From the IMG/VR virus record IMGVR_UViG_3300031519_006967, positions 36,828 to 100,827 of that record: 64,000 nucleotides of DNA; one strand, 5' to 3'. Position 1 is the first letter of the stretch. Every line of letters starts with the position of its first letter. Source of the stretch: a virus. A model generated the notes under the pieces. That model did not search any database. It was given only the letters and a program-made list of their open reading frames with translations, and was not told the origin of the DNA. The position numbers and the translations under genes were made by a program. Shown here piece after piece: positions 17,245-63,805 of the stretch.

Positions 17245-17811
17245 ATGAAATTAACATTAGAAGACTTTAATATTTTAGTAAACCAAGGAAGTGCCGAACT
17301 AGCAACAGATTTAGCTAATATGGGTAAACCGTCTTGTGAAGCGGATTCGGGGATGATTAGAAGCACTTTATTAGCAAACTCTGCGAGATATTGTGAGGCG
17401 AATGACCACCTAACACTAGAACAGAATTTAGATGTTATGACGCAAACTGTCAAGTGCCTATACAGTGAAGAGTTTGAGGAAATCTTAAACGATGACACAA
17501 TATCTATACAACCAATGACTGGTCCAGTTGGTCTAGCTATTGGCGTCTACATTACTGCGTATGAAACAGCTATCCAGAAAACTGCTGTAGAATCAGGAAC
17601 TCGCCGATTTGAAAACGATTTCGATTTTGGGGAGATTGTTGATGAATTGCGATTACGCCAAAAACAAAAAGAAGAAAACGGCGAAAACTCCCATATTATT
17701 TACTGCCCATACATCATGGTTATGTATGTGGAGACAAGGGGTGATTCTTATTTTTCTAGATATGGGGTGATTGATCACCTTATGGGTGAGAATATAATTA
17801 TTGAAGGATAA
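17245..17811 (+). CDS. Truncated paralog of a T4 gp23-type major capsid protein
   Basis: IQPMTGPVGL, KTAVESGTRR, IIYCPYI and SRYG motifs within only 188 aa. Confidence 0.65.
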   Translation: MKLTLEDFNILVNQGSAELATDLANMGKPSCEADSGMIRSTLLANSARYCEANDHLTLEQNLDVMTQTVKCLYSEEFEEILNDDTISIQPMTGPVGLAIGVYITAYETAIQKTAVESGTRRFENDFDFGEIVDELRLRQKQKEENGENSHIIYCPYIMVMYVETRGDSYFSRYGVIDHLMGENIIIEG

Positions 17812-17828
17812 TAGCATAAATATACCAG

Positions 17829-18512
17829 ATGAGATCATTTAAACAATTTATAATAACCGAATCTGTAGATGGGTTCTTCGACGATTTAGAAAATTGGGGA
17901 GTTTTACACTTTGATGGCAGACTGTATTATAAGGCATATGCCAATTCCACGGTTACTGTCGAATTAGGTGGCTGGTCTGGAGGTCTGCGATTATCATACA
18001 TTAAAGCAACCCCACATGGATCGGGTGCTGGGTCTATGTTCATGTCCGAGTTAGTTAAAAAGGCGGATGAACATAATATCAAGATTACTGGATCGGTTCA
18101 GTCGGAGGAGGGTGGACCATCCGACCAAAAATTACGCGAATTTTATCGAAAATTCGATTTTGAAATAGATGGTGAAGATATAGAAAGAACTCCAAACGCT
18201 ACCTCACCAGTTATTGTTTTACGTGGTTCAGGTTCACCCAAAAAGGCTAGAAGCCATATAGCAGAGTTATCTGAAAAATACGATTGGGTTGTTCATGGAG
18301 AACACGAATCTGGGTGGGAAAATTGGGAAGATGCTTTAGATTCGATTTGGGACAATGCCGAATTAGATGATGATGTTGAGGATTTCAAAAATATGGTATA
18401 TGGTGAATCTGGTGATGATTCCGATTTAGCCGAATTTATCAACGACGAATTAGAGAAGTTAAACTCACCATATAGTGTATCATTTACTGGCGAAAGTGAA
18501 GATGATTATTAA
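17829..18512 (+). CDS. GNAT-like protein with CTS-like N-terminus
   Basis: GSGAGSMFMSELVKKAD acetyl-CoA-loop-like motif, LREFYRKFDF; begins MRSFKQFIITE. Confidence 0.6.
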   Translation: MRSFKQFIITESVDGFFDDLENWGVLHFDGRLYYKAYANSTVTVELGGWSGGLRLSYIKATPHGSGAGSMFMSELVKKADEHNIKITGSVQSEEGGPSDQKLREFYRKFDFEIDGEDIERTPNATSPVIVLRGSGSPKKARSHIAELSEKYDWVVHGEHESGWENWEDALDSIWDNAELDDDVEDFKNMVYGESGDDSDLAEFINDELEKLNSPYSVSFTGESEDDY

Positions 18513-18554
18513 TAGCCTTAAAGGTGAGAATATAATTATTGAAGGATAATAATA

Positions 18555-19343
18555 TTAGCTTCTTAATTCATCTAAGAACTTTTTAACTTCGGGTATTCTA
18601 TCAGTTATTCTTTGTTTCTCAGTGTTTTTAGTCATTCCGCCATGTTCCAATAGCGCGAATGATTCGTCACCACCCCAAGCTAAGTCATCAATTTTATCAA
18701 CCTCTAAGTCTAAATAGTCCGCTTGCTCCCGTGTATTCACCACTATAGCAGTTTTAAGTTTGTGTTTAAGTATTAGTTTTTTCCCATATTCATTAGTATC
18801 ATAACTAGCAGTTATAACGAAGTTTGATGGAAGTTTATCTAAGCGTTTAACCCATAATGGAATTGATGTGGTATATGTGTAAAACAGTTTATTTGGCATT
18901 CTATTAGCTACTTCAATCCAAGCATCAAAATATGTCCCTGAGAAGAAATCCCCACCATTATGAAGGCGGAATATTGAACTCCGTGCGGCTCGCCTCTCTG
19001 CCAATATGGACCGTTGTAGAAGATCAGCCATCTTTTTAGTAGTTTTCTCAGCTTCTACTAACTCCATATTATTTTTAGTTTTCTCGGCAACTCCTTCGGG
19101 GAATCTTGTTTCTATTTGGTTCTTAAAACAACTCTTTTTACAATCCCCTGAAAATGGGCAAGAGTCTATTGTTGCTAGAGACATTCCCCAATTTCCATGT
19201 TTGCTGGTTTTAGTCGGTTGGTCTAATTTTATTACTGTTTCACAGTCTTGTAGGTCGTCTGCGTTCTCCCCACCATTCATCATAGCCTTAATATCGGCTG
19301 GAGATATTGCTTCTAATATCGTGTAAAGCTTACTGAACTTCAT
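18555..19343 (-). CDS. Phage gp88-like Cys-cluster (radical-SAM-like) protein with CTS-like N-terminus
   Basis: CPFSGDCKKSC, FRLHNGGDFFS, FYTYT, NFVITAS. Confidence 0.65.
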   Translation of the reverse strand: MKFSKLYTILEAISPADIKAMMNGGENADDLQDCETVIKLDQPTKTSKHGNWGMSLATIDSCPFSGDCKKSCFKNQIETRFPEGVAEKTKNNMELVEAEKTTKKMADLLQRSILAERRAARSSIFRLHNGGDFFSGTYFDAWIEVANRMPNKLFYTYTTSIPLWVKRLDKLPSNFVITASYDTNEYGKKLILKHKLKTAIVVNTREQADYLDLEVDKIDDLAWGGDESFALLEHGGMTKNTEKQRITDRIPEVKKFLDELRS

Positions 19344-19387
19344 AATATTATTTATTGTTTAACCGTTAATATAGTATAAATACCAAT

Positions 19388-19930
19388 ATCGCAAGTTTTA
19401 AATTATTTTTAGAAGGAAAGAAAAAGGGAACTGGGTTTGGTTGCCTGATGTTATACTTCCCGTCAGAATTAAAGAAGGAGTTCATGAAACTCACTACGAA
19501 GATTGACGAGAATGATCTATACAAACCAGAAGATGGATTTGGGGTAGAGACTGACCCACACGTAACGGTTAAATACGGACTACATGAGAACGACCACGAT
19601 AAGGTGTTTACGACTTTGGGTAAAATATCCCCAGTCACAGTTAAATTTAAAACTAAAGTTAGTCTGTTTGAGAATGAGAAATATGATGTTATTAAGATCA
19701 ATCTATCAGGTCCAGATATCCGAGCATTAAACAAACGAGTTAGTGACATTTTTGAATGCACTGATGGCTACCCAGTGTATACTCCCCACTCAACCATTGC
19801 ATACGTTAAACCAGGAACAGGTCATAAATATTTAAATTTAGATTCTGATTTTATGGGTAGTGAGTTTGACCTTACTAGGCTAATATATTCCGATTCTAAG
19901 TCAGACAAGAAGTATAAATATTTAAAATAA
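19388..19930 (+). CDS. 2H phosphoesterase, T4 57B/Acb1-like
   Basis: Two HxT motifs, PHVTVKYG and YTPHSTIAY; first ATG at 19448, but the frame extends to an ATC at 19388. Confidence 0.75.
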   Translation: MASFKLFLEGKKKGTGFGCLMLYFPSELKKEFMKLTTKIDENDLYKPEDGFGVETDPHVTVKYGLHENDHDKVFTTLGKISPVTVKFKTKVSLFENEKYDVIKINLSGPDIRALNKRVSDIFECTDGYPVYTPHSTIAYVKPGTGHKYLNLDSDFMGSEFDLTRLIYSDSKSDKKYKYLK

Positions 19931-19933
19931 ATT

Positions 19934-20521
19934 ATGAATACTTTTAACGACTATATACATATATTGGAAAATGAAATTAAAAATAATCTTCCCATTGATG
20001 AGATTATGAAATTTGCGGATTCACGGGGTGAAGTGTTTGCGGATACTGACACACATTTAGTTGTTCGCCCATCAAACCACAAATCATCTTGCAATTACGG
20101 GCAATATACTAGGTCCAATTTCTGCTTAGCGGAAGAGGATAATCCATCAGAGTGGGATCAAATAGATATGATTACCCAGCAAATGGGTTCACCCGCCCAC
20201 TTTTACTACGCATTTTCTAAGAAACTATCCCAGAAAAACAAGAATTCTATTTTTGGAATTATGGTATATCCCCGAGCGTGGAGCGATATGGCAGTTAATA
20301 TGAGCGATGAAGAGTTAGTAGCGACTGGTAGACAACGATTCACAGATCAAGTGGGGGGAGAATTGGCATATTCGGATGAATTTCTTTTAGATTGGGTTAA
20401 ACAGGTTAAACACCATAACAATTTATTTGAATCATACAACAGCAATAATAAAATTATTCTACCCAATGATTTGGAATCTCAGCTAGGGGTAAATCTTTTT
20501 AATATAATAATTAACGCTTAA
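19934..20521 (+). CDS. Hypothetical protein with CTS-like N-terminus
   Basis: MNTFNDYIHILE; SSCNYG...FCLA motif. Confidence 0.7.
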   Translation: MNTFNDYIHILENEIKNNLPIDEIMKFADSRGEVFADTDTHLVVRPSNHKSSCNYGQYTRSNFCLAEEDNPSEWDQIDMITQQMGSPAHFYYAFSKKLSQKNKNSIFGIMVYPRAWSDMAVNMSDEELVATGRQRFTDQVGGELAYSDEFLLDWVKQVKHHNNLFESYNSNNKIILPNDLESQLGVNLFNIIINA

Positions 20522-20538
20522 GTGGATAAATATTTTAA

Positions 20539-21429
20539 ATGATTTCTTTTAAGCGTTTCTTGTTTGAAGAGGGGATGACCCCATCTGATATATTGTTCAA
20601 TCCTGAGAACAATGATACTACTTGGCGGGAGTTAGTTGAAAAATTTAAGGAGAGTGGTGGAACTATGGCAGACGGTGGTAGAGCGCCAGTAATGATGCAT
20701 CCCGATTGGGATCATGTGGTGAAGTTGTTTAACGACGATATGTCATATTTAAAATTTGTGAGGTGGGTAATGAAAAAGTCCAATCCAAATTCAGCTTTCC
20801 CGATTTTTAAGGATAAGCCCAGAAGCATAGTCCCCAACTACAAACGAGGGTATGAAGATGAGAAAATGTATGCTGCTAGAATTGAGGAACTATCCCCAAT
20901 ATCTAAAGAAGATTATTTAGACTTACTGGAGTTTTGTGACACGGTAGACGCAGACGGTAATAATAGGTGGTATGAAATGAAAGATAAGCGAACGTTAGAA
21001 TATGAGGAAGAACATGGCCCCAACCCCAGAACTGTATCACAAGACAAAATGATAGAGAGAGTTAAAAAACGTCATCCAAACTGGAAAGATATAAAACCTG
21101 CAAAAACCGAGTTGGTTATGGCAGGATTGTGGAATGACGAAAAACAAACTAACGTTATGCTGAGAGACAATGGTGAAGTTGTATACATTGATCCAGTTTG
21201 GGATGGAGTGTCATTTGCAGAAATGCAGAGGGATGCTATGCGAGATCGTGACGGAGAATACCACGATTATGATCCTGGTTATGATGACCCTGATTACAGT
21301 CCCCCTGAACCACCATCTTTACAAGGCGGCGAGAAAATAAAACGCAAAAGAATTAAAAAGAAGATGCCTACCCCTAAACCAGAAGCAAGTCCAACATGGG
21401 ACGACACTGAATCGGAAATACCATTCTAA
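20539..21429 (+). CDS. Protein kinase-like protein with CTS-like N-terminus
   Basis: VVKLF (ATP-binding Lys), catalytic loop DEKQTN (DxKxxN), YIDP metal-binding loop. Confidence 0.6.
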   Translation: MISFKRFLFEEGMTPSDILFNPENNDTTWRELVEKFKESGGTMADGGRAPVMMHPDWDHVVKLFNDDMSYLKFVRWVMKKSNPNSAFPIFKDKPRSIVPNYKRGYEDEKMYAARIEELSPISKEDYLDLLEFCDTVDADGNNRWYEMKDKRTLEYEEEHGPNPRTVSQDKMIERVKKRHPNWKDIKPAKTELVMAGLWNDEKQTNVMLRDNGEVVYIDPVWDGVSFAEMQRDAMRDRDGEYHDYDPGYDDPDYSPPEPPSLQGGEKIKRKRIKKKMPTPKPEASPTWDDTESEIPF

Positions 21430-21443
21430 GGATAAATATCCAT

Positions 21444-22031
21444 ATGGATACCAGCACTGAAATGGCACAATTCATCATGGAGATGGAAGGAAGACGAGAC
21501 GAAAACGGATGTTTAGAAGTTTATTATTTACCTGAAGGTGATGGCGGCGGTGACTATGAAGTTGCTGGAATTAATAATAAATATCACCCCAAGCAAGCAC
21601 TACATCTTAAAACTTTAGTTGAAAATGGTAATTGTGTCGCGTCGGAATTATACGCTATTAATTATATTAAGGATTACACCTCTGTTGATCCTGAATGGCA
21701 TTACGATGACCGAGTTAATGCCTACCTAATGGACTGTAGATTCAATCGCGGACCTACTGGAGCAGCATACATCTTCCAACACTCGTTAGAGGTCGCAGGG
21801 ACGTATACGGGCGGATTAGATGGCGTGGTGGGGTCAGGAACTCGCGCAGCAGCAGCAAAGCACACAGCAGAAGACCTATTACTAAGATTACACTTGTCTC
21901 GACAATGGTATGAGCGGGAAAGAGTTGGTAGAGATGAATCTAGCGACTTTTGGAGTGGCCTTACAAATAGGTGGGTAAATGCCATGCAAATTTGTCTATC
22001 TGTAGGTGACCCATACGAAGATTTAGTATAA
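21444..22031 (+). CDS. GH108-like lysozyme/peptidoglycan hydrolase
   Basis: EMEG...DGGG.YEVAGIN, DCRFNRGP, DGVVGSGT, FWSGLTNRW. Confidence 0.7.
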   Translation: MDTSTEMAQFIMEMEGRRDENGCLEVYYLPEGDGGGDYEVAGINNKYHPKQALHLKTLVENGNCVASELYAINYIKDYTSVDPEWHYDDRVNAYLMDCRFNRGPTGAAYIFQHSLEVAGTYTGGLDGVVGSGTRAAAAKHTAEDLLLRLHLSRQWYERERVGRDESSDFWSGLTNRWVNAMQICLSVGDPYEDLV

Positions 22032-22039
22032 GTAGACTT

Positions 22040-23800: not shown

Positions 23801-23808
23801 ATAACATT

Positions 23809-25089: not shown

Positions 25090-25090
25090 A

Positions 25091-42228: not shown

Positions 42229-42636
42229 ATGGCATACGAAAAACCACAACCAGTTCATTTTGAAAACACCCAATTTAATCATAATTTTGATTTAGAAGAT
42301 TGGAATATTGATGCAGTATTTAAAGACACCATTTGGATGGAGTTTATTGATGGTGACGATGGAGATAAACAATCACGCGGAGGAGTTATAATTCCTGAGA
42401 ACGCAAGGTCACTAAAAGACTTCTACCGCATTGGTAGGGTTCTTAAAGTTGGTCCAGATTGTTCGGACAGTGTTAGTGCTGGTTGCTTTGTAATTGTACC
42501 TCCAAACTTGGGGATGGTTGGCCTTAAGAAAGGTCCAAATGGCGGTAAATCATTATTCATTCGCGAGGAATTAGTAATGGCAGTAGTATCACCAAACGAT
42601 GATGAAACAGTCAGACGAAAAGAAGACGAGTTTTAA
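42229..42636 (+). CDS. GroES-like co-chaperonin
   Basis: SRGGVIIP mobile loop, GRVLKVGPDC, FIREELVMAVV. Confidence 0.8.
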   Translation: MAYEKPQPVHFENTQFNHNFDLEDWNIDAVFKDTIWMEFIDGDDGDKQSRGGVIIPENARSLKDFYRIGRVLKVGPDCSDSVSAGCFVIVPPNLGMVGLKKGPNGGKSLFIREELVMAVVSPNDDETVRRKEDEF

Positions 42637-42856
42637 TATTACAGACAAAATTACTAGGGAGAACTGGGCTAGGGCGATTCAGACAGAGATAGATTCAGAG
42701 ATTATAAAACGCTTAATGACCGTTGCAAAAAGAACCATTATGAGAGACGAATACGAATCTATTGCGCCTAGAGTGGTTTTAGAATTAATAATGCCTCAAT
42801 CAGTAATCGATTATTTTTATAATAATGGTCCACCCCCACTAGGCGGTCTGGTGTAA
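42599..42856 (+). CDS. Small protein with a gp23-like helix
   Basis: AIQTEIDSEIIKRL. Confidence 0.45.
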   Translation: MMKQSDEKKTSFNITDKITRENWARAIQTEIDSEIIKRLMTVAKRTIMRDEYESIAPRVVLELIMPQSVIDYFYNNGPPPLGGLV

Positions 42857-42889
42857 ATAGTCAGAGCCGTTAATACTTTATAATATTTT

Positions 42890-51584: not shown

Positions 51585-54500
51585 ATGCCACAATTAAATT
51601 TAACAATTGAATCACCAGGTGTAGAGATACGAGAAGTAGACCTATCATTAAATCCTGATATTCCCATCGGAACCAATGTTTATGTGGTCGGTTTTACCCC
51701 ACAAGGTCCAACCGATGAGCCAACAAACCTTTCCAGTCTAGTTGAATTCGAAGAGATTTTTGGTCTCCCAGAGTCAGCAGCAGAAAGATATGCACACAAC
51801 GCAGTTAAACAAATTATCACAACTTCGAATTCGAATGTGTTGTTTACTAGAATGCCTTACGGGTCTGCTTGTGGTATAGGCTACGCTAATTCATATTCTG
51901 CAATGGTATTCCCAACAGTGGGCCTATCCGCAACAGAAGTTGATGTGTGTACGTATTACCAAGGATTATCCGAGGCGGAAGTAAGTGAAAACTACCCATG
52001 GTTACATGGGGATTATTATGTGAAACCATCACTATGCATTGGATCAAATAAATTCGATTGCCCACAAACACCACTGACAGACAGTGGAGGGAGTTTTGTG
52101 GCTCACGACTTTAAATTCGAGTATGCTGGAAAACTTAAAAATATTAAATGGGTTGTTGATGATGATACATCATCTGAAACGTTCTCAGCGTTCCTACTTA
52201 GACCAGAAGCAGACTCATTGGATTGTACCTTTGATGTCGTAACAGCAATTAACCTACAGGATTACGCTACAGGCGATGAAGATACCGCAGGATTAAGTAT
52301 TGCTAATGGAGTAGCAGATTGGGATTTAACTACTGGACCTGATGGCGGATTGCCAGTTCAGGCAGGAGACTTAATCGCAACTTGGGACACTGCTGGAGTT
52401 TTTAAATATTATATCTCATCTAACGGTAGCTCTACTATCCTTTCGGGTAATAATCCAATCGTTGGAGATACCTTTTATGCAGCAGGTTCAGCAGATGGAA
52501 CTAATTGCCTAAGCGGTAGCCTAGATTATCTTATTGATTTCTGCTACAGCCCAACTAATTCAGGACTATCTTGCGATACCCTGACTTCTTTAGGAGTAAC
52601 AGTTCCAGAAAACGCAAAATATACCTACAACCCAGTTGGAGGTGATTGTCAGCTTAATGACGCTAACTACTACGTTCTGGGTCAACCAATTCACGTTACT
52701 CTAAGTGACGCAGAATACGAATTACTTAAAAATCAGCAGTTCAATTGGAAGTGCGGATGTTTCGAGAATAATGAAGCATTGCTAGACCTTGAAGGAAATG
52801 ATGTTCGCGCAGGACTAATCGTTGTAAACGAAGCTAAGACTGCTCAACTCGAAGACTTCAGTGGTTACTACCTTGCTATCAACGATAACTTGAATTTTAA
52901 CCCATCTACCGACTTCGACGAAGTTACTGGTATTTGCGGTAGATTCGATGAAGAATGTTTGGAAATTGAAGGTGCATGGACGCCATTACCAGAAGAGAGG
53001 CTTAATTTTGAAGTATCAGCCGCTTTTGATGGTAATGCGGGTTCTATATCAGAAATAATCGAACAGGGCGCAGGGCTTGATTTGGGGGCAGTGGAATACA
53101 ACGACTCGATTGTTGTATCACTCTTCAAATTGAGACCTACGCGATTCACTGAAGATATTACTAAGTTGGACCAAATCTTGGTTGAAAAATTCACAGGTTC
53201 ATTGAACTCTGAAAGAATGGTTCAGGATAGCTTTGGTGGACCACCTAGAACATCTTTCATTGAGGAAGTTGTTAATAGGGGATCAAACAATCTTACAATG
53301 TTTGTTAATCCATTCTTATCAGATAACAATTGCTGGAATGACGCAAAGGGAACTCCACAAAAATCCGTAAGGGTTTTCCGTGAAGCTACTGGTGGAGTAT
53401 TCGACAACTTCGATGCCGATGATGCACTTAAAGCGTTCGGTGATAACTTGTATGGTATTGGCCAATATACAGGCCATTGTCAAGATGCTACATATGAACT
53501 ATGTGTCCAGAAGGACGTTGGTTCATTGCCTTGTAAACTTGAGAGAGCCTTGGTATGCGCAGACAATCCACTTGAATATGATATCGACATTACTGTTGAT
53601 GCTGGTCTATCCACAATTTGGGGTACAAGACAAGCAACGTCAGATGATGATTGTAACAGTCCAGTAGCTACATGCTACCACTTCGATGATTCAGTATACA
53701 TTAATACAGATAGCCTATCTCCTAGAGATGGAACTACCTTGAATAGTGATCTTAAGGATGGTTGGGCTACGGTTAACAATGCTTTCATAAGCTTCGCTAA
53801 GCGTGATTCCGATCCAACTTACGCGGGTCACCTGCACATCTCCGATCCACAAAGACAAATCTTTATTAATGGTAAAGACTTTAAAGTTGTGAAGAGACAG
53901 AAGCAAGTATTACTAGACCCTGTGACTGGAAACATCTCTAAGAAGTATAGCACGTTCTCACGTAACATATATACATATCTTAAGAATCTATACGATGGTG
54001 TTAACTCATCATATGTAGCGGCTTATCCTAACTGGATTCGTGATTACGACACAAGTAGAGATAAATACTGTTGGTTCCCAGCTTCTTCCTACGCGGCAGC
54101 AGCAATGGCACGAACAGATCAAAACTTCTTCCCATGGTTCGCGCCAATGGGACCAACTAGAGGTGTCTTATCTAACGTTATTGATCTTGCAATCAATCCG
54201 AATCAAAAGGAAAGAGACTTGCTTTACAGAATCAATCTTAACCCAATCGTTAACCTACCAGGAGAAGGAAACTTAATCTGGGGTCAGAAGACGATGTTAA
54301 GAGCGCCTTCTGCACTTGATAGACTCAACGTAAGAAGAGGTCTCCTAGAGTGGGAGAAAGCTACACAGAGAACGTTATGGCAGTTCATTGGTGAGCCAAA
54401 CACAATCATTACTAGAACAAGAGTTGAGAATACTCTGAAGCCTATTTTTGAGAATGCTAAGCAGAATCAGGGACTTTATGACTACTTGGTCGTATGTGAC

Positions 54501-54641
54501 GAGAGAAATAACAATTTTTCAACTATTGACCAAAATGTTCTAAATGTTGACATTTATCTGAAGCCAGTTAAGGCGATGGAATTCATAAAAGCGAACTTTA
54601 TTGTTACTAGAACTGGAATTGACTTCGGTGAGCTTCTCTAA
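51585..54641 (+). CDS. Contractile tail sheath protein (T4 gp18-like)
   Basis: SPGVEIREVDLS, GPTDEP, PWFAPMGPTRG, INLNPI, WGQKT, LDRLNVRR, VVCDERNN, YLKPVKAMEFI. Confidence 0.96.
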   Translation: MPQLNLTIESPGVEIREVDLSLNPDIPIGTNVYVVGFTPQGPTDEPTNLSSLVEFEEIFGLPESAAERYAHNAVKQIITTSNSNVLFTRMPYGSACGIGYANSYSAMVFPTVGLSATEVDVCTYYQGLSEAEVSENYPWLHGDYYVKPSLCIGSNKFDCPQTPLTDSGGSFVAHDFKFEYAGKLKNIKWVVDDDTSSETFSAFLLRPEADSLDCTFDVVTAINLQDYATGDEDTAGLSIANGVADWDLTTGPDGGLPVQAGDLIATWDTAGVFKYYISSNGSSTILSGNNPIVGDTFYAAGSADGTNCLSGSLDYLIDFCYSPTNSGLSCDTLTSLGVTVPENAKYTYNPVGGDCQLNDANYYVLGQPIHVTLSDAEYELLKNQQFNWKCGCFENNEALLDLEGNDVRAGLIVVNEAKTAQLEDFSGYYLAINDNLNFNPSTDFDEVTGICGRFDEECLEIEGAWTPLPEERLNFEVSAAFDGNAGSISEIIEQGAGLDLGAVEYNDSIVVSLFKLRPTRFTEDITKLDQILVEKFTGSLNSERMVQDSFGGPPRTSFIEEVVNRGSNNLTMFVNPFLSDNNCWNDAKGTPQKSVRVFREATGGVFDNFDADDALKAFGDNLYGIGQYTGHCQDATYELCVQKDVGSLPCKLERALVCADNPLEYDIDITVDAGLSTIWGTRQATSDDDCNSPVATCYHFDDSVYINTDSLSPRDGTTLNSDLKDGWATVNNAFISFAKRDSDPTYAGHLHISDPQRQIFINGKDFKVVKRQKQVLLDPVTGNISKKYSTFSRNIYTYLKNLYDGVNSSYVAAYPNWIRDYDTSRDKYCWFPASSYAAAAMARTDQNFFPWFAPMGPTRGVLSNVIDLAINPNQKERDLLYRINLNPIVNLPGEGNLIWGQKTMLRAPSALDRLNVRRGLLEWEKATQRTLWQFIGEPNTIITRTRVENTLKPIFENAKQNQGLYDYLVVCDERNNNFSTIDQNVLNVDIYLKPVKAMEFIKANFIVTRTGIDFGELL

Positions 54642-54754: not shown

Positions 54755-56440
54755 ATGGATAAATCTATATATTTGGAGGATTTTAGGGAGGCATATCCCA
54801 AACATTATGTTAGACTGATAATGAGGGATAATCCTGAGTATTATGAAGCCGCCGTGGAATATTGCCGTGAGTTGGGTTTAGATTCTAATGCTAAACTATT
54901 ATACCATTATGCCCACGATTTGGATGTTATTCCTGATTGTAAAACTTGCGGAGATCAAATAAAAGTATTTGGGGTTAACAATAATAGAGCATACAACTCC
55001 TTTTGTGGAAAGTCGTGTGCAGCATCAAACCCAGAAGTGATAAAACTAAGGGTGGCGAATAGAACTGAATCCGCTATAGATATTTTAAATAAAAAGAAAC
55101 AAACAATACTATCTAAAGATGTAGTAATAGATGAGAAAACATTCCGTCAGTTTATTAACAAGATGGAGGATACCAATATAACAAATATTGAGAAAACACT
55201 CATTGCACATCACCCCGATATTTATAATTACTATTATAAAATCCATGGAGATTTAAATCCAAATGAAGTGGTATATTTAATTAAAAATGATATGGATAAG
55301 CCACATTGTCCTGATTGTAATATACCTTTAAAATTTGAGACGTATATTAAAGGTTACGTATCGGGATGCTCCACCCCCGCATGTTATGGGAAAGCGTCAG
55401 GTAGAACTAAAAGAGCAAAACACTATCATATATGGGAACCTAGATTAAACGCAAAGAATATTAAAATCCTTTCTGATATTGATCAGTATGTTGATGATGG
55501 TGTCATTACTCTAAACTGCACAAAATGTGATCATACGTGGGATAGAAAGGTACACACTACTATTCATGGTGGTTGTCCTAATTGTAGGGTATCCAAACCT
55601 GAAATGGAAGTATTTGAATTTATAAATGAGGAATCTAAAGTATCGAACACTAGAAAAATAATACCACCTCTAGAATTAGATATATACATCCCAAATCACT
55701 CCTTGGCAATTGAGTTTAATGGAATCTACTGGCACTCCGAATTAAGTGGAAAGGATAAACAATACCATTTAAATAAAACCAAAGTATGTGAGTCTAAAAA
55801 TATCCAATTACTTCATATATTTGAAAGTGAGTGGAAATTTAAAGAAGATATTTGGAAATCTATTATAAACACAAAGCTGGGTAATAATATTAGAATATAT
55901 GGGCGTAAGTGTAAAATTAAAGAAATTGATACATCTATAAAGAATGAATTTCTGGACTATAACCACCTACAAGGACAAGACAAGGCATCCATAAAATTAG
56001 GACTATTTCACGAAGAAGAGTTAGTATCGGTCATGACGTTCTGTAAGTCTAGATTCGATAAGGGATACCAATGGGAGCTTAGTCGCTTTGCATCTAAATT
56101 AAACACTTCAATTATAGGGGGAGCATCAAAGCTTCTTAAATATTTTACTAGAAATTACAAACCCGAAAGTCTAATATCATATGCTAATAGACGACACAGT
56201 AATGGGAATTTATATAAACAACTGGGATTCTCTTTCCTTCGTGATAGTCCACCAAATTACTTTTATTTTAAAGGCAGTGATTGTTGGGATTTAAAATCTA
56301 GGCAACAGTTCCAGAAGCATAAGTTGGAAGATAAGTTGGAAGAATTCGACCGCAATCTATCTGAATGGGAGAACATGAAGATCAATGGATATGACAGAAT
56401 TTGGGATTGTGGTAATAGTGTTTGGTCTCTAATATTATAA
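54755..56440 (+). CDS. Free-standing Hef-like homing endonuclease (Zn fingers, PD-(D/E)xK domain, GNAT-like C-domain)
   Basis: Several CxxC motifs; ELDIYIP..LAIEFNGIYWH, LLHIFESEW; NHLQG, ELSRFA, GGASKLL, YDRIWDCG. Confidence 0.8.
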   Translation: MDKSIYLEDFREAYPKHYVRLIMRDNPEYYEAAVEYCRELGLDSNAKLLYHYAHDLDVIPDCKTCGDQIKVFGVNNNRAYNSFCGKSCAASNPEVIKLRVANRTESAIDILNKKKQTILSKDVVIDEKTFRQFINKMEDTNITNIEKTLIAHHPDIYNYYYKIHGDLNPNEVVYLIKNDMDKPHCPDCNIPLKFETYIKGYVSGCSTPACYGKASGRTKRAKHYHIWEPRLNAKNIKILSDIDQYVDDGVITLNCTKCDHTWDRKVHTTIHGGCPNCRVSKPEMEVFEFINEESKVSNTRKIIPPLELDIYIPNHSLAIEFNGIYWHSELSGKDKQYHLNKTKVCESKNIQLLHIFESEWKFKEDIWKSIINTKLGNNIRIYGRKCKIKEIDTSIKNEFLDYNHLQGQDKASIKLGLFHEEELVSVMTFCKSRFDKGYQWELSRFASKLNTSIIGGASKLLKYFTRNYKPESLISYANRRHSNGNLYKQLGFSFLRDSPPNYFYFKGSDCWDLKSRQQFQKHKLEDKLEEFDRNLSEWENMKINGYDRIWDCGNSVWSLIL

Positions 56441-56772: not shown

Positions 56773-57447
56773 ATGCCACTAGGATCAATTAGAAACGCTT
56801 ATGATGTATACCAACAACACGATTTCTCGCGTTCTTTTCAATTCCGTATCATTTCAATGTTCGGAGTACCTGACTATGTTCTACGAGAGGTCGTAGAAAA
56901 GCCAGTTGGGGAGGGAGGTGCGCTTTATTTAAAGACTGCATCTATACCAGGAAGAACCGTAAATGATATTACTGTACCATACCAGGGTTTTGAATTTCAC
57001 ACGCCCGGTTCTGTAAAATACGACGATAATCCATGGACTGTTACATTTAAAACGCCAGGTGATTATCTAGTAAGAAATGCTCTGGAAAGATGGCACTTTG
57101 AAATGTTTAGTGACGAGACATCATGCGGGAATTTTGGAATACCTTGTGCAGATACAGTAATCCGAATCGGTTTAACTGATGCAACTTCTTGTAGTATTAT
57201 TAGAACATATGACCTAGTGGGTGTATATCCATCTAAGTTAGGACCAATTGCTTATAATATTGAGTCTACTGACCTTACGGAGTTCTCAGTGGATTTCTTC
57301 TACCAGTATTGGAGATTAGTTCCGAACAACGACACGGGAAATGTGGATTCCACCACTTCTGAAGGCTCTAAAATTGATGAAACTTATGGAGATTACCATA
57401 CTTCAATTATTCAGACTGATGAAAATTGCGGAGTCCCTGCTGTTTAA
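56773..57447 (+). CDS. Tail tube protein (T4 gp19-like)
   Basis: KTASIPGR, VPYQG, WTVTF, RNALERW, YDLVGVYP, FSVDFFYQYW. Confidence 0.88.
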   Translation: MPLGSIRNAYDVYQQHDFSRSFQFRIISMFGVPDYVLREVVEKPVGEGGALYLKTASIPGRTVNDITVPYQGFEFHTPGSVKYDDNPWTVTFKTPGDYLVRNALERWHFEMFSDETSCGNFGIPCADTVIRIGLTDATSCSIIRTYDLVGVYPSKLGPIAYNIESTDLTEFSVDFFYQYWRLVPNNDTGNVDSTTSEGSKIDETYGDYHTSIIQTDENCGVPAV

Positions 57448-57460
57448 TTAAAATTTAATG

Positions 57461-57494: not shown

Positions 57495-57498
57495 GTGT

Positions 57499-57720: not shown

Positions 57721-57995
57721 AGAATGCCCTGTCTCACTAATCCATCATTATTACCCTTCCTAGCTTGTTGGATTTCGTATAGAATGTCACCGCTAATTGG
57801 GTCAACATATTCATCAATTATTTTTTTGGTATTTAAATTGATATTATCTGTGTCTACGTCGTATCGCTCTGCATGGTTGTAAATTACCTCTAGTCCCTGC
57901 ATTAATGCCCACCACCTAGAGAACTCTAGGTCGGACATTTCAGATGCCTTTTTCATAGGCGTTGTATTATTGTCTAGTATTGACTTAGCTATCAT
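57717..57995 (-). CDS. Hypothetical protein
   Basis: 92 aa, ATGA overlap with the upstream gene. Confidence 0.65.
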   Translation of the reverse strand: MIAKSILDNNTTPMKKASEMSDLEFSRWWALMQGLEVIYNHAERYDVDTDNINLNTKKIIDEYVDPISGDILYEIQQARKGNNDGLVRQGIL

Positions 57996-58432: not shown

Positions 58433-58433
58433 C

Positions 58434-58871
58434 TTAGTGTAATATGTTTACCAGTAGTGCAGCTAACCCTGCTCTGAAGTAATCATTCTCTATCTTACTA
58501 CCATCTACAAAATTAGCAAGTAGTTTTTTAGTAGTTTCCATTGATTTAGTGATTTCTTCCAGTGCCTCAAACTCGCTGTCCTTAGTGATGGTTTGTTTCA
58601 TGGCCGATATGTATATTTCAAATACTTTACAGAATTGTTCTTTTGTATCTTTTTTAGATTTAGATACTCTACCATAGTGCCGAATCATCTTATAGAAGTC
58701 ATCGATTTTAGGATATTGGGAGAAGTGACTATTAATAGTCTCTGTAACTTCCCCTGCCGTTTTAGGTATAGGTGTGTCTAATTTCGTAGCGCCAATATCG
58801 CTACCCAATAGGTGTTCTTCGTTTACTTCTGTATTATCAACAAAAACGGAATCTGGTGTCATAATTCCCAT
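58434..58871 (-). CDS. Hypothetical protein
   Basis: 145 aa, part of the same operon. Confidence 0.65.
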   Translation of the reverse strand: MGIMTPDSVFVDNTEVNEEHLLGSDIGATKLDTPIPKTAGEVTETINSHFSQYPKIDDFYKMIRHYGRVSKSKKDTKEQFCKVFEIYISAMKQTITKDSEFEALEEITKSMETTKKLLANFVDGSKIENDYFRAGLAALLVNILH

Positions 58872-59290
58872 TATCCTACTGATATCCCATTTTGCTTAGC
58901 AAAGAAGTCTACAGCATCTGTAATTGGCTCCGTAGTAGTCGCTGTAGTGAAGTTAATCCAAATGGAGTTCTTGACTCCACATCCCACACACACAAACTCA
59001 GTTTCAGTTAAATCTAACTCTACATCATTTTCCATAGCGCAGCCCTGACAGGTTAAGGGGACTAGATATTGCTTGAATTCCAGTGCATCATATTTAACCA
59101 GAGACTCCTCAATTCTGTTATACTCTTTGTGGTGTTTATGCCAGTAGGTATAGAACCATTGTAGCCCTACGCCAATTGCCGTAATTCCCCACCAAGATAT
59201 ATCAAATAGAAGGAACAATCCTAACCCAACCAAAAATGATGGTAAGATCAGCAATGATAATGCTATTAGTAGTCGTAAAACCCCTTTCAT
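58871..59290 (-). CDS. Membrane protein with C-terminal Zn ribbon
   Basis: Two N-terminal hydrophobic helices; CQGC...CVGC. Confidence 0.7.
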   Translation of the reverse strand: MKGVLRLLIALSLLILPSFLVGLGLFLLFDISWWGITAIGVGLQWFYTYWHKHHKEYNRIEESLVKYDALEFKQYLVPLTCQGCAMENDVELDLTETEFVCVGCGVKNSIWINFTTATTTEPITDAVDFFAKQNGISVG

Positions 59291-59291
59291 A

Positions 59292-59462
59292 TTATTTATC
59301 TCTTTCTGCTGTGATGCCGTGTTTTACGAAAGTTCCACACCTACATCTCCAATGGCACTCTGTTATAATTTTGCTTTCCTGTAACCTTTCTGTTTCTTTA
59401 CCTCGAACGGATGATCCGCATCTAGGGCAGGTTATTGGTATGTTTCTGATAATGTTATTCAT
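59292..59462 (-). CDS. Small Zn-ribbon protein (56 aa, not in ORF track)
   Basis: MNNIIRNIPITCPRCG...WRCRCG; TAAGTA 5 nt upstream. Confidence 0.65.
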   Translation of the reverse strand: MNNIIRNIPITCPRCGSSVRGKETERLQESKIITECHWRCRCGTFVKHGITAERDK

Positions 59463-59470
59463 GATATTAC

Positions 59471-60364
59471 TTAGCTAAATGAAAACCACTCTTCTAGTAG
59501 ATTCTTGTTATTTAATAATGATCTCCAAGAGGTGATATCTCTAGTCACCGCAGTTAATCTATATGTATCACACATGGATCGAAGCTCAGACTCATTGAAC
59601 GTGTTGGTTTCTACTAATTCATCCAACTGAGTATCATATGACTCTATCTCCCCCTCTGATAATGCTATACTTTTAGTTAAATCCATAATTTTGCGGTTTC
59701 TTTTTAAAATATCCACTTGATCGGTAGTTAGGGTGTCCCACTCTTTTGATATTGCAAGACGCTTAGATTTAACTTCACCATATCGATCCAACCCAATCAC
59801 ATTGTCTGATTTGTCGCCTAAAATGGCTTTATAATCAACGAAGCATTCTTTTGGAACGCCTGTAAACTCCTCGAAGTTTTCTAAGGTGACTTTGACATTT
59901 TTGGTAGTGTTAAATACGACTGTATTTTCAGATGCTAGTTGTAATAAATCCCTATCGGATGATATCACGACCTTATCTCCTTCCAGTGTAGTTGTTAGGT
60001 ATGCTGCTACATCATCCGCTTCCAAATTCCATGGGTACATATTCTTGATACCTAAGTGTTGGGTGAGTTCAATGATAAGATCAATGGCATCAAATATTTC
60101 ATTTCGGACATCATCTTCTATGTTTCTGTGGCCTTTATAGTCCACAAGTTCTTTTCTGTAATTATCTCCTGTTGGGTTTAACCTTTTATCCCAGACTATA
60201 TATACGTGATTGGGTTTGAAGGATTCTATGTATCCTTTAACCATTCGAAGGAATTGAGTTACGACTGTTATATTAACGCCGTTCACCATCTGACTTCCTT
60301 TTGTTACGTGGTATGCTCTGAATATTGTGTTATTTCCGTCCAAGATTAAGTTTAGACTGTTCAT
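59471..60364 (-). CDS. rnh: 5'-3' exonuclease / T4 RNase H-like flap nuclease
   Basis: ILDGNN, YKGHR, LEADD, ISSDRDLLQL, GDKSDNV.G. Confidence 0.92.
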   Translation of the reverse strand: MNSLNLILDGNNTIFRAYHVTKGSQMVNGVNITVVTQFLRMVKGYIESFKPNHVYIVWDKRLNPTGDNYRKELVDYKGHRNIEDDVRNEIFDAIDLIIELTQHLGIKNMYPWNLEADDVAAYLTTTLEGDKVVISSDRDLLQLASENTVVFNTTKNVKVTLENFEEFTGVPKECFVDYKAILGDKSDNVIGLDRYGEVKSKRLAISKEWDTLTTDQVDILKRNRKIMDLTKSIALSEGEIESYDTQLDELVETNTFNESELRSMCDTYRLTAVTRDITSWRSLLNNKNLLEEWFSFS

Positions 60365-60373
60365 GTCAATAAC

Positions 60374-60655
60374 TTAATCCATGGAAGGAGTAGATTCCAC
60401 TTTTTTATCATTATTCTCCCAAGTTAGCCTAACATCTGCGTATACATCATCAGGCATTTCTTCAATGATTTCAAGGGTTTCCTCCAACACCATAGCATCG
60501 AATAAATCTTTAGGTATAGTCAAGTTAGTGTTTCCGCCAGCAAAGATTTTCAAACATTCTACTTGCTTTGCGCCATATTCTATGACTATAATACCATTAC
60601 CAGACTCTCCTGGTATACATAATGCCATGAAATGTTTTTCATAATTCATAAGCAT
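60374..60655 (-). CDS. Hypothetical protein
   Basis: 93-aa ORF. Confidence 0.6.
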   Translation of the reverse strand: MLMNYEKHFMALCIPGESGNGIIVIEYGAKQVECLKIFAGGNTNLTIPKDLFDAMVLEETLEIIEEMPDDVYADVRLTWENNDKKVESTPSMD

Positions 60656-60744
60656 ATTTAATTACTAAATTACTTTAAAGCAATTAAAATATTTATTAGG
60701 GCGAATGCCCGTGGGTGTGTTCGGCTTTAAAGTTATTATTAATA

Positions 60745-61023
60745 TTACTTAAATGGTCTAGGGCCAAAAGTCTTTCTATAATATTTTCTAAAGTCTTTTT
60801 GAATTTTACCAGTTGTTGGGATTAGTGGAAGAGAGTAAACGTGTCCGCCTTTTTGGAAAAATCCGATACGGCGAGGTAAAACCTTTTTCATTTCCTTTGG
60901 GGATAATTTACCTGGATATACTTTTCGGCCCTTCTGGTCCAACCACTTAGCGTAATGCCGTTCTTCGATGAGTTCCAAGGATTCGTTGATCTTACGTAGT
61001 TTTTCGTTAAAATTCGGGGTCAT
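60745..61023 (-). CDS. Basic protein with CTS-like N-terminus
   Basis: MTPNFNEKLRKINE; TAAATA 5 nt upstream. Confidence 0.6.
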   Translation of the reverse strand: MTPNFNEKLRKINESLELIEERHYAKWLDQKGRKVYPGKLSPKEMKKVLPRRIGFFQKGGHVYSLPLIPTTGKIQKDFRKYYRKTFGPRPFK

Positions 61024-61102
61024 GTCAATATTTATCCTCGACCGACTATATTTTTATGGTATCATACCAATATTTCGAATGAAAGGAGACTAATTAGTAA
61101 TT

Positions 61103-61723
61103 ATGAAGACTATAATGAACAAATTAGTGATTTTGGAATTGAACAAAAATTGGTTCCCAATCACACTAAAAACCCCAAAGAAGGTATTTGAAAGTTTCTC
61201 GACAGGAAACCTACTGGGACTTCATATGGATTGGTCAGAAGAAGATATTGAAAACGATGACTTTTCAAATCCAACTGAACTTAGTCCGTTGGGGTGGGAC
61301 GACTGGATCAAACTTCCAGTTCGTGACACGGATTTGTCTATTAGAACTTCCACGTTGGAAATTCGCGTCCCAAATATCGTAATTTGTTCTAAATTTAGCT
61401 CTATTCCAAACAATCCACCAAAAATGAGCAAGCGGAATATTATGGCTAGAGACAACATGACTTGTCAGTTCACGGGCGTTCAATACGCCAAGAAAGACTT
61501 AAACATTGATCACGTTATCCCAAAAAGCCGTGGTGGGGGAAACACATGGGAAAACCTTGTAACGTGCCATACTTCAATTAATACTTATAAGTCTAACCAA
61601 ACTCCAAAAGAGGCTGGATTGGAATTAATTCGTCCTCCTAAGAGACCGTCGCCTTCTTCATTATTCTTTGCGGATAAAATGAAAGACCCGAAGTGGGCAA
61701 TGTTTATGAAACATTTAAATTAA
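61103..61723 (+). CDS. HNH endonuclease
   Basis: RDNMTCQF, IDHVIPKSRGG.NTWENLVTC...N..K. Confidence 0.9.
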   Translation: MKTIMNKLVILELNKNWFPITLKTPKKVFESFSTGNLLGLHMDWSEEDIENDDFSNPTELSPLGWDDWIKLPVRDTDLSIRTSTLEIRVPNIVICSKFSSIPNNPPKMSKRNIMARDNMTCQFTGVQYAKKDLNIDHVIPKSRGGGNTWENLVTCHTSINTYKSNQTPKEAGLELIRPPKRPSPSSLFFADKMKDPKWAMFMKHLN

Positions 61724-61771
61724 CTTGACTTTGGTTGTGGAGGGGTTATGATTCTCTACAACCTAACCAAC

Positions 61772-62212
61772 ATGATCTTATTTATCATTCTACTATTAAT
61801 TCATATTACAATTACTGTTGTTATTTCCATGTCCGATGACCATGGAGACTGCGCCCATTTTTATTTTTTCGTCGTGGGTAGTATATTCTTAATGTTATTC
61901 CTAGTGATGAGTTATGTTAAATCTAGATCATCGCCGGTTTTTGATGTCACCCCGAGTGTTATGTATGCCTCATATGAGGGTAAAGGTTTTGTTTTATATG
62001 AAGAGGATGCTATGGGTATATTGATCCCAATATATACGGATGCTTCACCCGCAGAGGTGGAAACGGCCCAAAAGCACACAACGACTTATGATAATTCTCC
62101 CCGCTGGTGGAGATTTACTTTTGCTAAATCACCCATTACGGAATATGTATATCCATTAGATATTAAAATAATTCCTAAAGTTGCAGTAGAGTTGAATGTA
62201 GAAGTTGAGTAG
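61772..62212 (+). CDS. Hypothetical membrane protein
   Basis: Two N-terminal hydrophobic segments. Confidence 0.6.
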   Translation: MILFIILLLIHITITVVISMSDDHGDCAHFYFFVVGSIFLMLFLVMSYVKSRSSPVFDVTPSVMYASYEGKGFVLYEEDAMGILIPIYTDASPAEVETAQKHTTTYDNSPRWWRFTFAKSPITEYVYPLDIKIIPKVAVELNVEVE

Positions 62213-62226
62213 TGTATAGTATATAC

Positions 62227-62724
62227 ATGAGCAACATTATAACACTCACTAAAGAAGAACGCTTTGAAGCCAGAAAATGGGGCAACGCCCGAAGAGATAC
62301 TAATGTTAACGGTCAACTAATTGATTTAAGTCACTCTGGTAAACCCATGAAGGGATGTTGGAGAAAAAATGATGTGATTGGCGCAGGAGCAGAAATTGCA
62401 GTTGCAAGATTGTTGGGTGAGGAATTCACCGGAACAGTAAATTCATTTCACGATGTTGATGTAGCGGGTGGGTGGCAAGTTAGATGCACCGACTATTCCA
62501 CAGGTCGTTTAATTATACGTCCTCACAAAAAAGATAACCTAGAACACAAATACGTCTTAGTAGTATACGAACACAACGCCGTCTTTAATATTAAAGGATG
62601 GATTTTAGGATCAGATGCAATACAGGATAAATTTTTATTTAATCCTAATGGCGGGACACCCGCATATTTTGTCCCTCAACACGAACTGGCGGACTTCAAC
62701 TTAACAAATTTAAATAAAAAGTAA
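62227..62724 (+). CDS. Hypothetical protein, possible PD-(D/E)xK-like fold
   Basis: GAGAEIAVA...DVAGGWQVR...GW...YFVP. Confidence 0.55.
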   Translation: MSNIITLTKEERFEARKWGNARRDTNVNGQLIDLSHSGKPMKGCWRKNDVIGAGAEIAVARLLGEEFTGTVNSFHDVDVAGGWQVRCTDYSTGRLIIRPHKKDNLEHKYVLVVYEHNAVFNIKGWILGSDAIQDKFLFNPNGGTPAYFVPQHELADFNLTNLNKK

Positions 62725-62753
62725 AAAAAGATTTACATAAAGCTTGTTCATAG

Positions 62754-62885
62754 GCTATCTTTGGGATGCTGACTTGCAGAATAGGGAGATTCACAATCCC
62801 TGTTTTTTACGACTGGCGGGTGATGGGGTCGGTAGAGGAATGTGATATCGAATGGTTGCCGAATGTAAAATGATATCAGGATAGC
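62754..62885. ncRNA. Candidate structured RNA (multi-stem junction)
   Basis: Closing stem GCTATCT/GGATAGC enclosing three predicted hairpins in an intergenic gap. Confidence 0.35.
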
Positions 62886-62921
62886 GCCACTTGACGAAAC
62901 CAACCAAACTAAATAGGTCAT

Positions 62922-63281
62922 ATGAAGGATATAAGCCATTTGGTGGAAGAAATAATTCCAAAGGAATTATGGAAACTCAAAGTGACATATGTCGTTCTGA
63001 CTAAAAAGGGACCAATAGTGATCTCTTCTGGCTTTGAATTTGATCAAGCGTCAGTGGGAATTGCTAGACTACTTATAAGTAAAACTGAGTTGGGTATTTT
63101 ATCCACATTAACTCATGATTGGTTATATAGGAATAAGGGTGGTATCGGCGACCTAGTATTTACTAGGAAGGAAGCTGACCACATTTTTCTGGAACATATG
63201 AGAGTCTTAGGGATATCCAGATGGAAGAGATTAACTGCTTATCATGTAATAAGAGCAGTTTCTTGGATGTTTTGGGGTTGA
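62922..63281 (+). CDS. DUF1353-family protein
   Basis: GFEFDQASV, THDWLY, TRKEADHIFLE.M...G. Confidence 0.8.
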   Translation: MKDISHLVEEIIPKELWKLKVTYVVLTKKGPIVISSGFEFDQASVGIARLLISKTELGILSTLTHDWLYRNKGGIGDLVFTRKEADHIFLEHMRVLGISRWKRLTAYHVIRAVSWMFWG

Positions 63282-63337
63282 TAACAAATTTAAAGTATAT
63301 TACGCTATAGATTCTCACGATAATTTGAATTCAATAC

Positions 63338-63365
63338 TTGACATTGCTTCAATGTATTGTAAAAT
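63338..63365 (+). promoter_or_regulatory. Sigma70-type promoter for the tRNA cluster
   Basis: TTGACA (63338-63343), 16-nt spacer, TAAAAT. Confidence 0.55.
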
Positions 63366-63414
63366 GTGAAGTGCTTTGTGCAAATTGTCACTTTAAACAC
63401 CACTTTAACGAAAA

Positions 63415-63490
63415 GCAAGTGTAACTCAATTGGTAGAGTCTTTGATTTCCAATCAAAAGGTTGAGGGTTCGAGTCCCTTCGCTTGCTCCA
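63415..63490 (+). tRNA. tRNA-Gly(TCC)
   Basis: Acceptor GCAAGTG/CGCTTGC, anticodon arm TTTGA-TTTCCAA-TCAAA, GTTCGAG T-loop, encoded CCA. Confidence 0.93.
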
Positions 63491-63496
63491 TTTAAT

Positions 63497-63571
63497 GTTC
63501 CCATCGTCTACGGTAGGTTAGGATATGATCTTTTCACGGTCAGGAACTGAGTTCGACCCTCAGTGGGAATG
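63497..63571 (+). tRNA. tRNA-Glu(TTC)
   Basis: Acceptor GTTCCCA/TGGGAAT, anticodon arm TGATC-TTTTCAC-GGTCA, T arm CTGAG-TTCGACC-CTCAG; no encoded CCA. Confidence 0.88.
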
Positions 63572-63589
63572 CTTTACAAATAAATTTTT

Positions 63590-63805
63590 ATGAAATCCAA
63601 ATACGGACCTAGAAATACAAACTGCCCAATTATATATCCAGAGGATATTAAAGTTGGAGGGTTTACTTTTTCTAGGGAATTGATTGAAGACTTACGAGAA
63701 TTAAACGGAATAGACATTCCAGATGAATTATTCGATTATATGGATTTCTCAAACAGAAAAACGTCCAGAGAAAAAATAAATGATTATATTTATGAACGTG
63801 ATTAA
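63590..63805 (+). CDS. Small protein with a gp23-like segment
   Basis: FSRELIEDLRELNGIDIPDEL. Confidence 0.5.
   Translation: MKSKYGPRNTNCPIIYPEDIKVGGFTFSRELIEDLRELNGIDIPDELFDYMDFSNRKTSREKINDYIYERD

Follow-up and report, generated by a model that had tools for sequence, protein, structure and literature searches.

The 3′ 64 kb of a 100,827-bp viral contig from IMG/VR (IMGVR_UViG_3300031519_006967, bases 36828–100827) was analyzed. This whole stretch of 64,000 nucleotides is called the window, and coordinates refer to it unless they are marked as genome positions. The source is an uncultured marine/brine T4-like myovirus; the CheckV completeness of the contig was ~47%, and near-invariant copies of its sequence occur in marine, seawater, and brine metagenomes from at least 15 studies. 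The window contains three small open reading frames (ORFs) on the + strand, which an original prediction had described as intact, scattered fragments of a gp23-type major capsid protein: ORF1 (17245..17811, 188 aa), ORF2 (63590..63805, 71 aa), and ORF3 (42599..42856, 85 aa). All three exist and are intact. A fourth gp23-like fragment that had been missed, fragN, lies outside the window on the − strand (genome 18090–18647), ~18.2 kb before the window start. ORF1, hereafter also the mini-gp23, is an internally deleted paralog of the gp23-type major capsid protein, ORF2 is a small ORF between tRNA genes with one gp23-like segment, and ORF3 carries a possible gp23 spine-helix segment. No full gp23 gene was detected in the window, in agreement with the prediction, nor in the rest of the 100.8-kb contig, by a PF07068 search of the contig and a gp23 profile run on its six-frame ORFs. 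The unassembled half of the genome probably holds a normal gp23 gene.

To compare the ORFs with gp23, a profile hidden Markov model (HMM) of 481 positions was built from 120 full-length marine relatives of the gp23 protein P0005 and was run against the 2643 stop-to-stop ORFs of at least 20 aa in six frames of the whole contig. ORF1 ranked first (E 7e-10), followed by fragN (E 0.0019), ORF2 (E 0.0071), and ORF3 (E 0.22), and the fifth match had an E-value of 13. The best E-value was 3.1 among reversed ORFs and ranged from 0.36 to 10 per shuffle in 20 shuffles. With the database size unchanged, this HMM was also applied to 712 kb of other T4-like DNA from 80 loci fetched around gp23 genes, where two short ORFs besides the gp23 genes reached E<1 (0.13 and 0.88). 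In hhalign comparisons with 35 gp23 sequences, the P-values were 2.8e-8 for the mini-gp23 family described below, 9.3e-7 for fragN, 2.9e-5 for ORF2 (probability 74%), and 6.2e-4 for ORF3 (probability 28%). All four ORFs have coding-like codon usage and carry residues of the marine gp23 lineage instead of the T4 versions (YCPYI, KTAVE-GTRR, NGIDI, IQ-EID-E, and YAKGDAR-PKV). Judged from sequence comparison, the likeness to gp23 is certain for ORF1 and good for both fragN and ORF2, whereas that of ORF3 is borderline. The view that all three window ORFs are gp23 fragments is thus strongly upheld for ORF1 and reasonably for ORF2, whose profile match is supported, and weakly for ORF3.

ORF1 matched the HMM in three colinear pieces. 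Residues 76–101 (EFEEILNDDTISIQPMTGPVGLAIGV; 17470..17547, + strand; hmm 103–128, i-E 0.0023) comprise the end of the N-arm and the first E-loop/I-linker strand, and correspond by alignment position to T4 gp23 ~100–127, the most conserved block, named Gol. The Gol coordinates in T4 are taken here to be ~93–122. Residues 108–125 (IQKTAVESGTRR...; 17566..17619, +; hmm 220–237; T4 gp23 ~254–265) form the returning E-loop/I-linker-2 strand, in which K112, T113, V115, and E116 are invariant in 39/39 sequences (4 mini-gp23 proteins and 35 gp23). Residues 149–184 (IIYCPYIMVM...SRYGVIDHLMG; 17689..17796, +; hmm 416–458, i-E 5e-4; T4 ~446–486) hold the C-terminal P-domain strands and the P-loop, with C154, P155, Y156, R172, and D177 invariant across the same set. 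ORF1 therefore kept the N-terminal region, the N-arm, the QPM-GPVG and KTAVE-G-RR strands that flank the insertion domain in gp23, the CPYI and RYG strands of the P domain, and the P-loop. The positions hmm 129–219 and 238–415 are missing, and with them the insertion domain, the short P helix, the spine helix, and the whole A domain.

The codon-usage score of ORF1 (0.39 per codon) was typical of coding sequence. A late-promoter-like TAATTA box (17234..17239, + strand) lies 5 nt 5′ of its start and overlaps a copy of TATAAATA at 17238–17245; 21 copies of this sequence were observed against 9.2 expected. A TAATTA box is found 5–7 nt 5′ of 37/124 ORFs of at least 100 aa, the tail tube gene among them, and ORF1 is read as a late gene because it has the same arrangement. 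ORF1 is thus a real gene with a late box and an old paralog of the gp23-type major capsid protein. A match of residues 48–172 to ribonucleotide reductase R2 (6qrz_A, E 0.0036) was judged to be chance, since the gp23 evidence is far stronger and motif-exact. The ORF1 region gave no blastn match, and tblastn of ORF1 against 50,697 phage records gave none.

When ORF1 was compared exhaustively by phmmer with 1.8 billion representatives, four other proteins were returned, P0003, P0004, P0005, and P0006. P0005 (E 3e-4) is a full-length gp23 of 535 aa that holds, in one run, the motifs seen apart in ORF1, ORF2, and ORF3. P0003, P0004, and P0006 are metagenomic proteins of 172–221 aa (E 2e-9 to 8e-4). 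Together with ORF1 they form a set of four with 31–39% identity and the same internal deletions, and QPM-GPV, KT-VE, CPY, and R...D are common to all. In their shared layout, the N-terminal region, which faintly recalls the gp23 propeptide motif, leads to the N-arm end and the QPM-GPVG strand. A short link joins this strand to the KTAVE-G-RR strand, after which come a helix of ~17 residues, as predicted by AlphaFold2 (AF2), and the strands CPYI and RYG. Across the four proteins and 35 gp23, 16 columns are invariant.

Since three distant metagenomic proteins have the same architecture and invariant residues, the mini shape is conserved and the family is old. The mini-gp23 proteins are thus an old, conserved, and very rare family, and we propose them as a new one, undescribed as far as limited literature searches went. 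No further member came from searching 5.8 billion clusters with a profile. No relatives of the four proteins, of ORF2, or of ORF3 were found in IMG/VR or in GTDB genomes, and no minis in deposited phage genomes. A metagenome scan with the family alignment was swamped by full-length gp23, and 21/21 mini-like candidates were ordinary gp23 genes. The N-termini of P0003 and P0004 resemble Sec/Tat signal peptides, with MNRR at the start, hydrophobic residues after it, and then a small-x-A site. This feature, which would not be expected in a capsid-protein derivative, is absent in ORF1 and P0006.

The gp23-like segment of ORF2 is residues 26–54 (TFSRELIEDLRELNGIDIPDELFDYMDFS; 63665..63751, + strand), which match the short P-domain helix region of gp23 (hmm 238–265; E 0.0071 at Z=2643; P0005 283–311; T4 ~269–297). 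Its codon score of 0.39 falls in the top 2.5% of spurious ORFs, and the exact protein was found on 7 contigs. ORF2 had no Pfam or PHROG match, a DNA pattern made from it found nothing in IMG/VR, and the protein atlas gave no usable match for ORF2 or ORF3. PDB sequence matches of these two ORFs, to poly(A) polymerase and designed helical repeats, were dismissed as chance. Directly 5′ of ORF2 lie tRNA-Gly(TCC) and tRNA-Glu(TTC) (63415..63572, + strand; called by ARAGORN, Rfam tRNA 68.8 bits). A weak tRNA-like element lies 3′ of it at 63815–63911, with 22.9 bits to the Rfam tRNA-Sec model, which is below the cut-off, and no ARAGORN call; a further ORF starts at 63972 and runs past the contig end.

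In ORF3, residues 24–43 (ARAIQTEIDSEIIKRLMTVA; 42668..42727, + strand) align with the beginning of the spine helix of gp23 (P0005 309–328; T4 ~295–314; HMM match hmm 254–285). The libraries pointed to PHROG 138, major head protein (E 0.0035), and to Pfam Gp23 (E 0.039). The codon score was 0.29, which 13.6% of spurious ORFs reach. The window holds a minority allele of 85 aa ending PPPLGGLV; at least 12 other contigs encode 90–91 aa ending PPPPRRSGVNSQSR. The difference in length comes from one extra C in a C run (window 42830–42875) in most contigs, a difference that could be a homopolymer error or a genuine variant. The helix has a single conservative polymorphism, I27V. A second ORF3 motif (IAPRVVLEL against IATPRVCA-LE) was tempting by eye and not significant.

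ORF3 overlaps by 38 nt the end of the gene directly 5′ of it, a probable gp31/GroES-like co-chaperonin (42229..42636, + strand). The assignment of this gene is weak: it matched PHROG co-chaperonin GroES (E 6.8e-4) and head morphogenesis (E 3.6e-3), and Pfam Cpn10 at E 0.022 was under the cut-off. Ile35–Ile36 of ORF3 (window 42701–42706) align with V306 and V307 of T4 gp23, which are changed to Ile in a T4 gp31-independent mutant; the presence of these residues next to a gp31/GroES-like gene may be a coincidence.

These data bear on the view that only ORF1 is capsid-derived and that the likeness of ORF2 and, above all, ORF3 is due to chance. The HMMER E-value, hhalign probability, and codon score of ORF3 speak for it, and so does the empty Pfam and PHROG result for ORF2. 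Long-gap pairwise alignments (z only 1.5–3.9) did not extend the ORF2 and ORF3 matches, and the flanks of their motifs showed no gp23 signal. However, the two ORFs rank right after ORF1 and fragN among all ORFs of the contig, well ahead of the fifth match at E 13. The reversed and shuffled controls never fell below E 0.36, and only two short ORFs in the T4-like DNA were below E 1. Two independent libraries, Pfam and PHROG, point to the same part of the major head protein for ORF3, and the segments of both ORFs carry residues specific to the marine lineage. We consider chance quite an unlikely explanation.

The first part of the fourth fragment, fragN, copies the mature N-terminus and the N-arm of gp23 (GDFYAKGDARVPKV; hmm 62–97). 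This N-arm is followed by a K6 run, the leader IPTFKRWLKES, which is repeated in neighboring genes, and a YunG-like domain. The ATG of fragN at genome position 18620 is preceded, at a distance of 5 nt, by a late box. The ORFs were also compared with the T4-type capsid-targeting sequence, defined as an N-terminal leader of ~10 residues that ends in (L/I)-x-E and is cut by the prohead protease. The N-termini of ORF1, ORF2, and ORF3 do not fit this definition; only fragN has such a leader (IPTFKRWLKE/S), and there it is internal. In hhalign, the repeated leader (IPTFKRWL; genome 16908–18647) was paired with the helix of the gp23 N-arm (IPMIRRTF). The leader MRSFKQFIITES of the gene 3′ of ORF1 (window 17829–17864) resembles RRTFPELITNE of gp23. 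The capsid-targeting-like leaders of this phage may derive from the gp23 N-arm or mimic it.

In P0005 numbering, fragN covers 66–107, ORF1 covers 96–123, 268–279, and 465–505, ORF2 covers 283–311, and ORF3 covers 309–328. ORF2 thus starts just past the middle piece of ORF1, and ORF3 starts at the end of ORF2. The fragments had been called complementary, with ORF1 said to lack exactly the block that the other two supply. This is overstated: ORF2 and ORF3 supply hmm 238–285 only, ~48 of the ~270 missing positions, and all fragments together cover ~180–190 of the 481 profile positions. No ORF on the contig matched hmm 286–415; the A-domain blocks, which are equally conserved, were found nowhere on it, and the same holds for the insertion domain (hmm 129–219).

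Since the A and insertion domains are missing from all contig ORFs, the pieces cannot rebuild a capsid protein. A split capsid protein, whose pieces would join non-covalently into a working HK97-fold subunit, is accordingly extremely improbable, even though the segments of ORF1, ORF2, and ORF3 are essentially contiguous and non-overlapping and the contig has no full gp23. In addition to the missing domains, ORF1-type minis stand alone elsewhere, and the absent half of the genome is the probable place of a normal gp23 gene. A complex prediction for ORF1, ORF2, and ORF3 (partner ORF3) scored 0.00, which gives no verdict and is evidence for neither side. All four ORFs appear to be gp23 derivatives and not capsomer-forming members. 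ORF2, fragN, and probably ORF3 would be otherwise unrelated small proteins, each with one short stretch from the same gp23 lineage.

The fragments were numbered by alignment to T4 gp23 and compared with published T4 mutation sites (PMC9546572). FragN corresponds to T4 gp23 70–111 and falls on the A66/A94/G97 head-length cluster, in which it covers the mutations A94 and G97; it also covers the portal-anchor residue M98. ORF2 (269–297) falls on the A268/A275/D285/D287 cluster and covers the length mutations A275, D285, and D287, and the C-terminal piece of ORF1 (446–486) covers A455 as well as the T457/R460/G461 cluster. ORF3 (295–314) covers the gp31-bypass sites V306 and V307 in the spine helix. 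According to the same source, the T4 regions matched by the fragments are quasi-threefold, scaffold, or chaperonin-dependence sites (PMC9546572). The Gol region is described as EF-Tu-binding, Lit-activating, and the most conserved part of gp23 (PMC3014915). The retained parts thus seem to form the periphery of the subunit, with inter-capsomer, scaffold, chaperonin, and EF-Tu contacts, and the lost parts its capsomer core.

Since the parts kept are peripheral contacts of gp23 and the A domain is gone, we tentatively read the fragments as capsid-interface mimics that may act in head assembly, a reading to which we give somewhat less than an even chance. Without an A domain, such proteins would be unable to build capsomers. 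While heads assemble, they would serve as accessory or targeting modules, made alongside gp23 and bound to its partners, namely the edges of the gp23 lattice, the core, or the chaperonin. They would have originated by capture and divergence of pieces of the gp23 gene. The position of ORF3 directly 3′ of the gp31/GroES-like gene and the fusion of the fragN N-arm before a repeated capsid-targeting-like leader are in favor of this reading.

Several results weigh against it. The Pfam Gp23 model (PF07068) stayed below its gathering cut-off of 24.4 bits for every ORF, with 15.1 bits for ORF1 (E 0.015), 13.8 bits for ORF3, and no match for ORF2. The AF2 model of ORF1, from 39 alignment rows, was poor (pLDDT 52.7) and left the fold unsupported; a Foldseek search with this model gave nothing meaningful. 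Neither ORF2 nor ORF3 has a late box upstream, no homologs of either were found outside the near-clonal phage population, and the C-terminus of ORF3 varies by frameshift among contigs. The signal-peptide-like starts of two of the three other minis do not fit a purely cytoplasmic role in assembly. The overlap with T4 mutation clusters may reflect only the conservation, and hence the detectability, of those parts of gp23.

An extended form of interface mimicry would make the fragments a toolkit of capsid-derived peptides (N-arm, short P helix, start of the spine helix, and P-loop sheet) that dock on gp23 lattices or on gp31-GroEL; we regard this form as improbable, on a level with chance resemblance. 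Such peptides could determine the geometry of the head or the use of the chaperonin, bring in cargo, or act as a poison on the heads of T4-like rivals that infect the same cell. The virus would then encode a dominant modulator made from parts of the gene for its own capsid protein, at the sites of T4 head-length (ptg) and gp31-bypass mutations.

The arrangement of the pieces also bears on a neutral origin, in which rearrangements took apart a second copy of gp23; ORF1 would then have been exapted, whereas ORF2, ORF3, and the N-terminus of fragN would be functionless scraps in unrelated ORFs. The segments tile one continuous part of gp23 (P0005 268–279, 283–311, and 309–328), as if from one source, and homing/HNH endonuclease genes in the window could drive rearrangement. 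The missing late boxes and outside homologs of ORF2 and ORF3, and the frameshift-polymorphic tail of ORF3, agree with this origin. However, distances of 18 to 82 kb separate the pieces, which are spread over both strands and not side by side, and all of them are intact ORFs with codon usage typical of the genome. Identity between their cores and the invariant positions of real gp23 is only 34–48%, which indicates a long divergence, and a neutral ORF would be expected to disappear over such a time. The deletion architecture of ORF1 is common to homologs at 31–39% identity and is therefore much older than any recent break-up. We hold relics, at least where ORF2 and ORF3 are concerned, to be rather unlikely, at about one chance in four; if the fragments were relics, they would be a record of the decay of a capsid gene copy.

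The Gol-equivalent block of ORF1 raises another function, in which the mini-gp23 and the peptides would copy capsid epitopes read by Lit/Gol-EF-Tu or CapRel-type sensors and soak up or block these sensors. Such decoys were the leading proposal of the original prediction, which also named assembly modulators and interference factors. Direct sensing of capsid proteins by defense systems is established (PMC9712102), and ORF1 keeps this block together with the N-terminal quarter of gp23. However, a protein that bears Gol is expected to trigger a Lit-type system and not to block it, and the late-type box would have ORF1 appear with gp23 and not earlier. No defense-related neighbors were seen, and the Pfam and PHROG scans that were run returned no anti-defense family. 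The Gol-equivalent region and the late box would be compatible with a decoy or an assembly role and are proof of neither. Defense decoys are in our estimate unlikely, slightly less so than chance resemblance; if the fragments were decoys, they would be a new class of anti-defense protein.

Among known systems, full-length capsid paralogs such as T4 gp24 are established. Like gp24, the vertex protein and classical paralog of gp23, ORF1 is a second gp23-derived gene in a T4-type genome and a late one. T4 gp24 is full length, with a complete HK97 fold and insertion domain, and forms pentamers. Since ORF1 has no insertion domain, spine helix, or A domain, it would not be a capsomer subunit, unlike gp24. 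Residues 76–101 of ORF1 align to the same block as the T4 Gol region and also follow the N-terminal quarter of gp23 (PMC3014915). The T4 Gol region is part of the full capsid protein and not a separate gene, unlike ORF1, for which EF-Tu binding is only putative.

The Family 4 'A-domain' encapsulins are, like the mini-gp23, a conserved and drastically shortened derivative of the HK97 fold (doi 10.1101/2021.03.18.436031). These encapsulins keep only the A domain and occur in archaeal enzyme operons, whereas the mini-gp23 keeps the opposite parts (N-arm, base of the E-loop, and P-domain strands) and is phage-encoded. SaPI CpmB and P4 Sid offer an analogy of working only, since they are satellite-encoded, mimic the scaffold and not the capsid protein, and have no sequence relation. 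In these systems, a small protein, one short segment of which is similar to a head-assembly protein, competes with that protein for its contact on the capsid and redirects capsid size. Competing scaffolding proteins and capsid size in SaPI mobilization were reportedly the subject of work by Dearborn in 2017. A truncated and presumably inactive paralog of the prohead protease in the giant phage SPN3US is a precedent for a shortened head-morphogenesis paralog kept in a large myovirus (PMC5694885); it belongs to a different protein family from the mini-gp23.

Limited literature searches found no stand-alone conserved derivative that keeps only the peripheral contact parts of an HK97-fold capsid protein, and no genome with several unrelated small genes that each hold a different capsid-derived peptide. 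If the products were to bind to capsid lattices, the scaffold, the chaperonin, or EF-Tu, they would serve as natural probes for those contacts that determine head size and folding in T4-type phages. They would also show how phages build new small genes from pieces of essential genes.

The remaining genes of the window are consistent with a T4-like phage. They include a T4 gp43-type DNA polymerase (1890–4454) with ~30% identity to pelagiphage, Methylophilales-phage, and cyanophage T4-likes, a gp41-like helicase, the tail sheath (51585–54641), and the tail tube (56773–57447). The sole phage with a moderately related DNA polymerase (L003, 38% identity) is represented by a 63-kb contig without gp23. 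A 561-aa protein encoded at 54755–56440, between the tail sheath and tail tube genes, matched PHROG 'homing/HNH endonuclease' (E 1e-119), with a faint Pfam match, and a second, separate HNH endonuclease gene lies at 61103–61723. Reads from four runs over 61000–64000 gave the same sequence wherever they covered it; their cover of ORF2 was fragmentary, and they held no polymorphism for a selection test. Two other runs have an extra G after window position 62783, at an intergenic site between 62724 and 62922, and the aligned contigs otherwise match the window.

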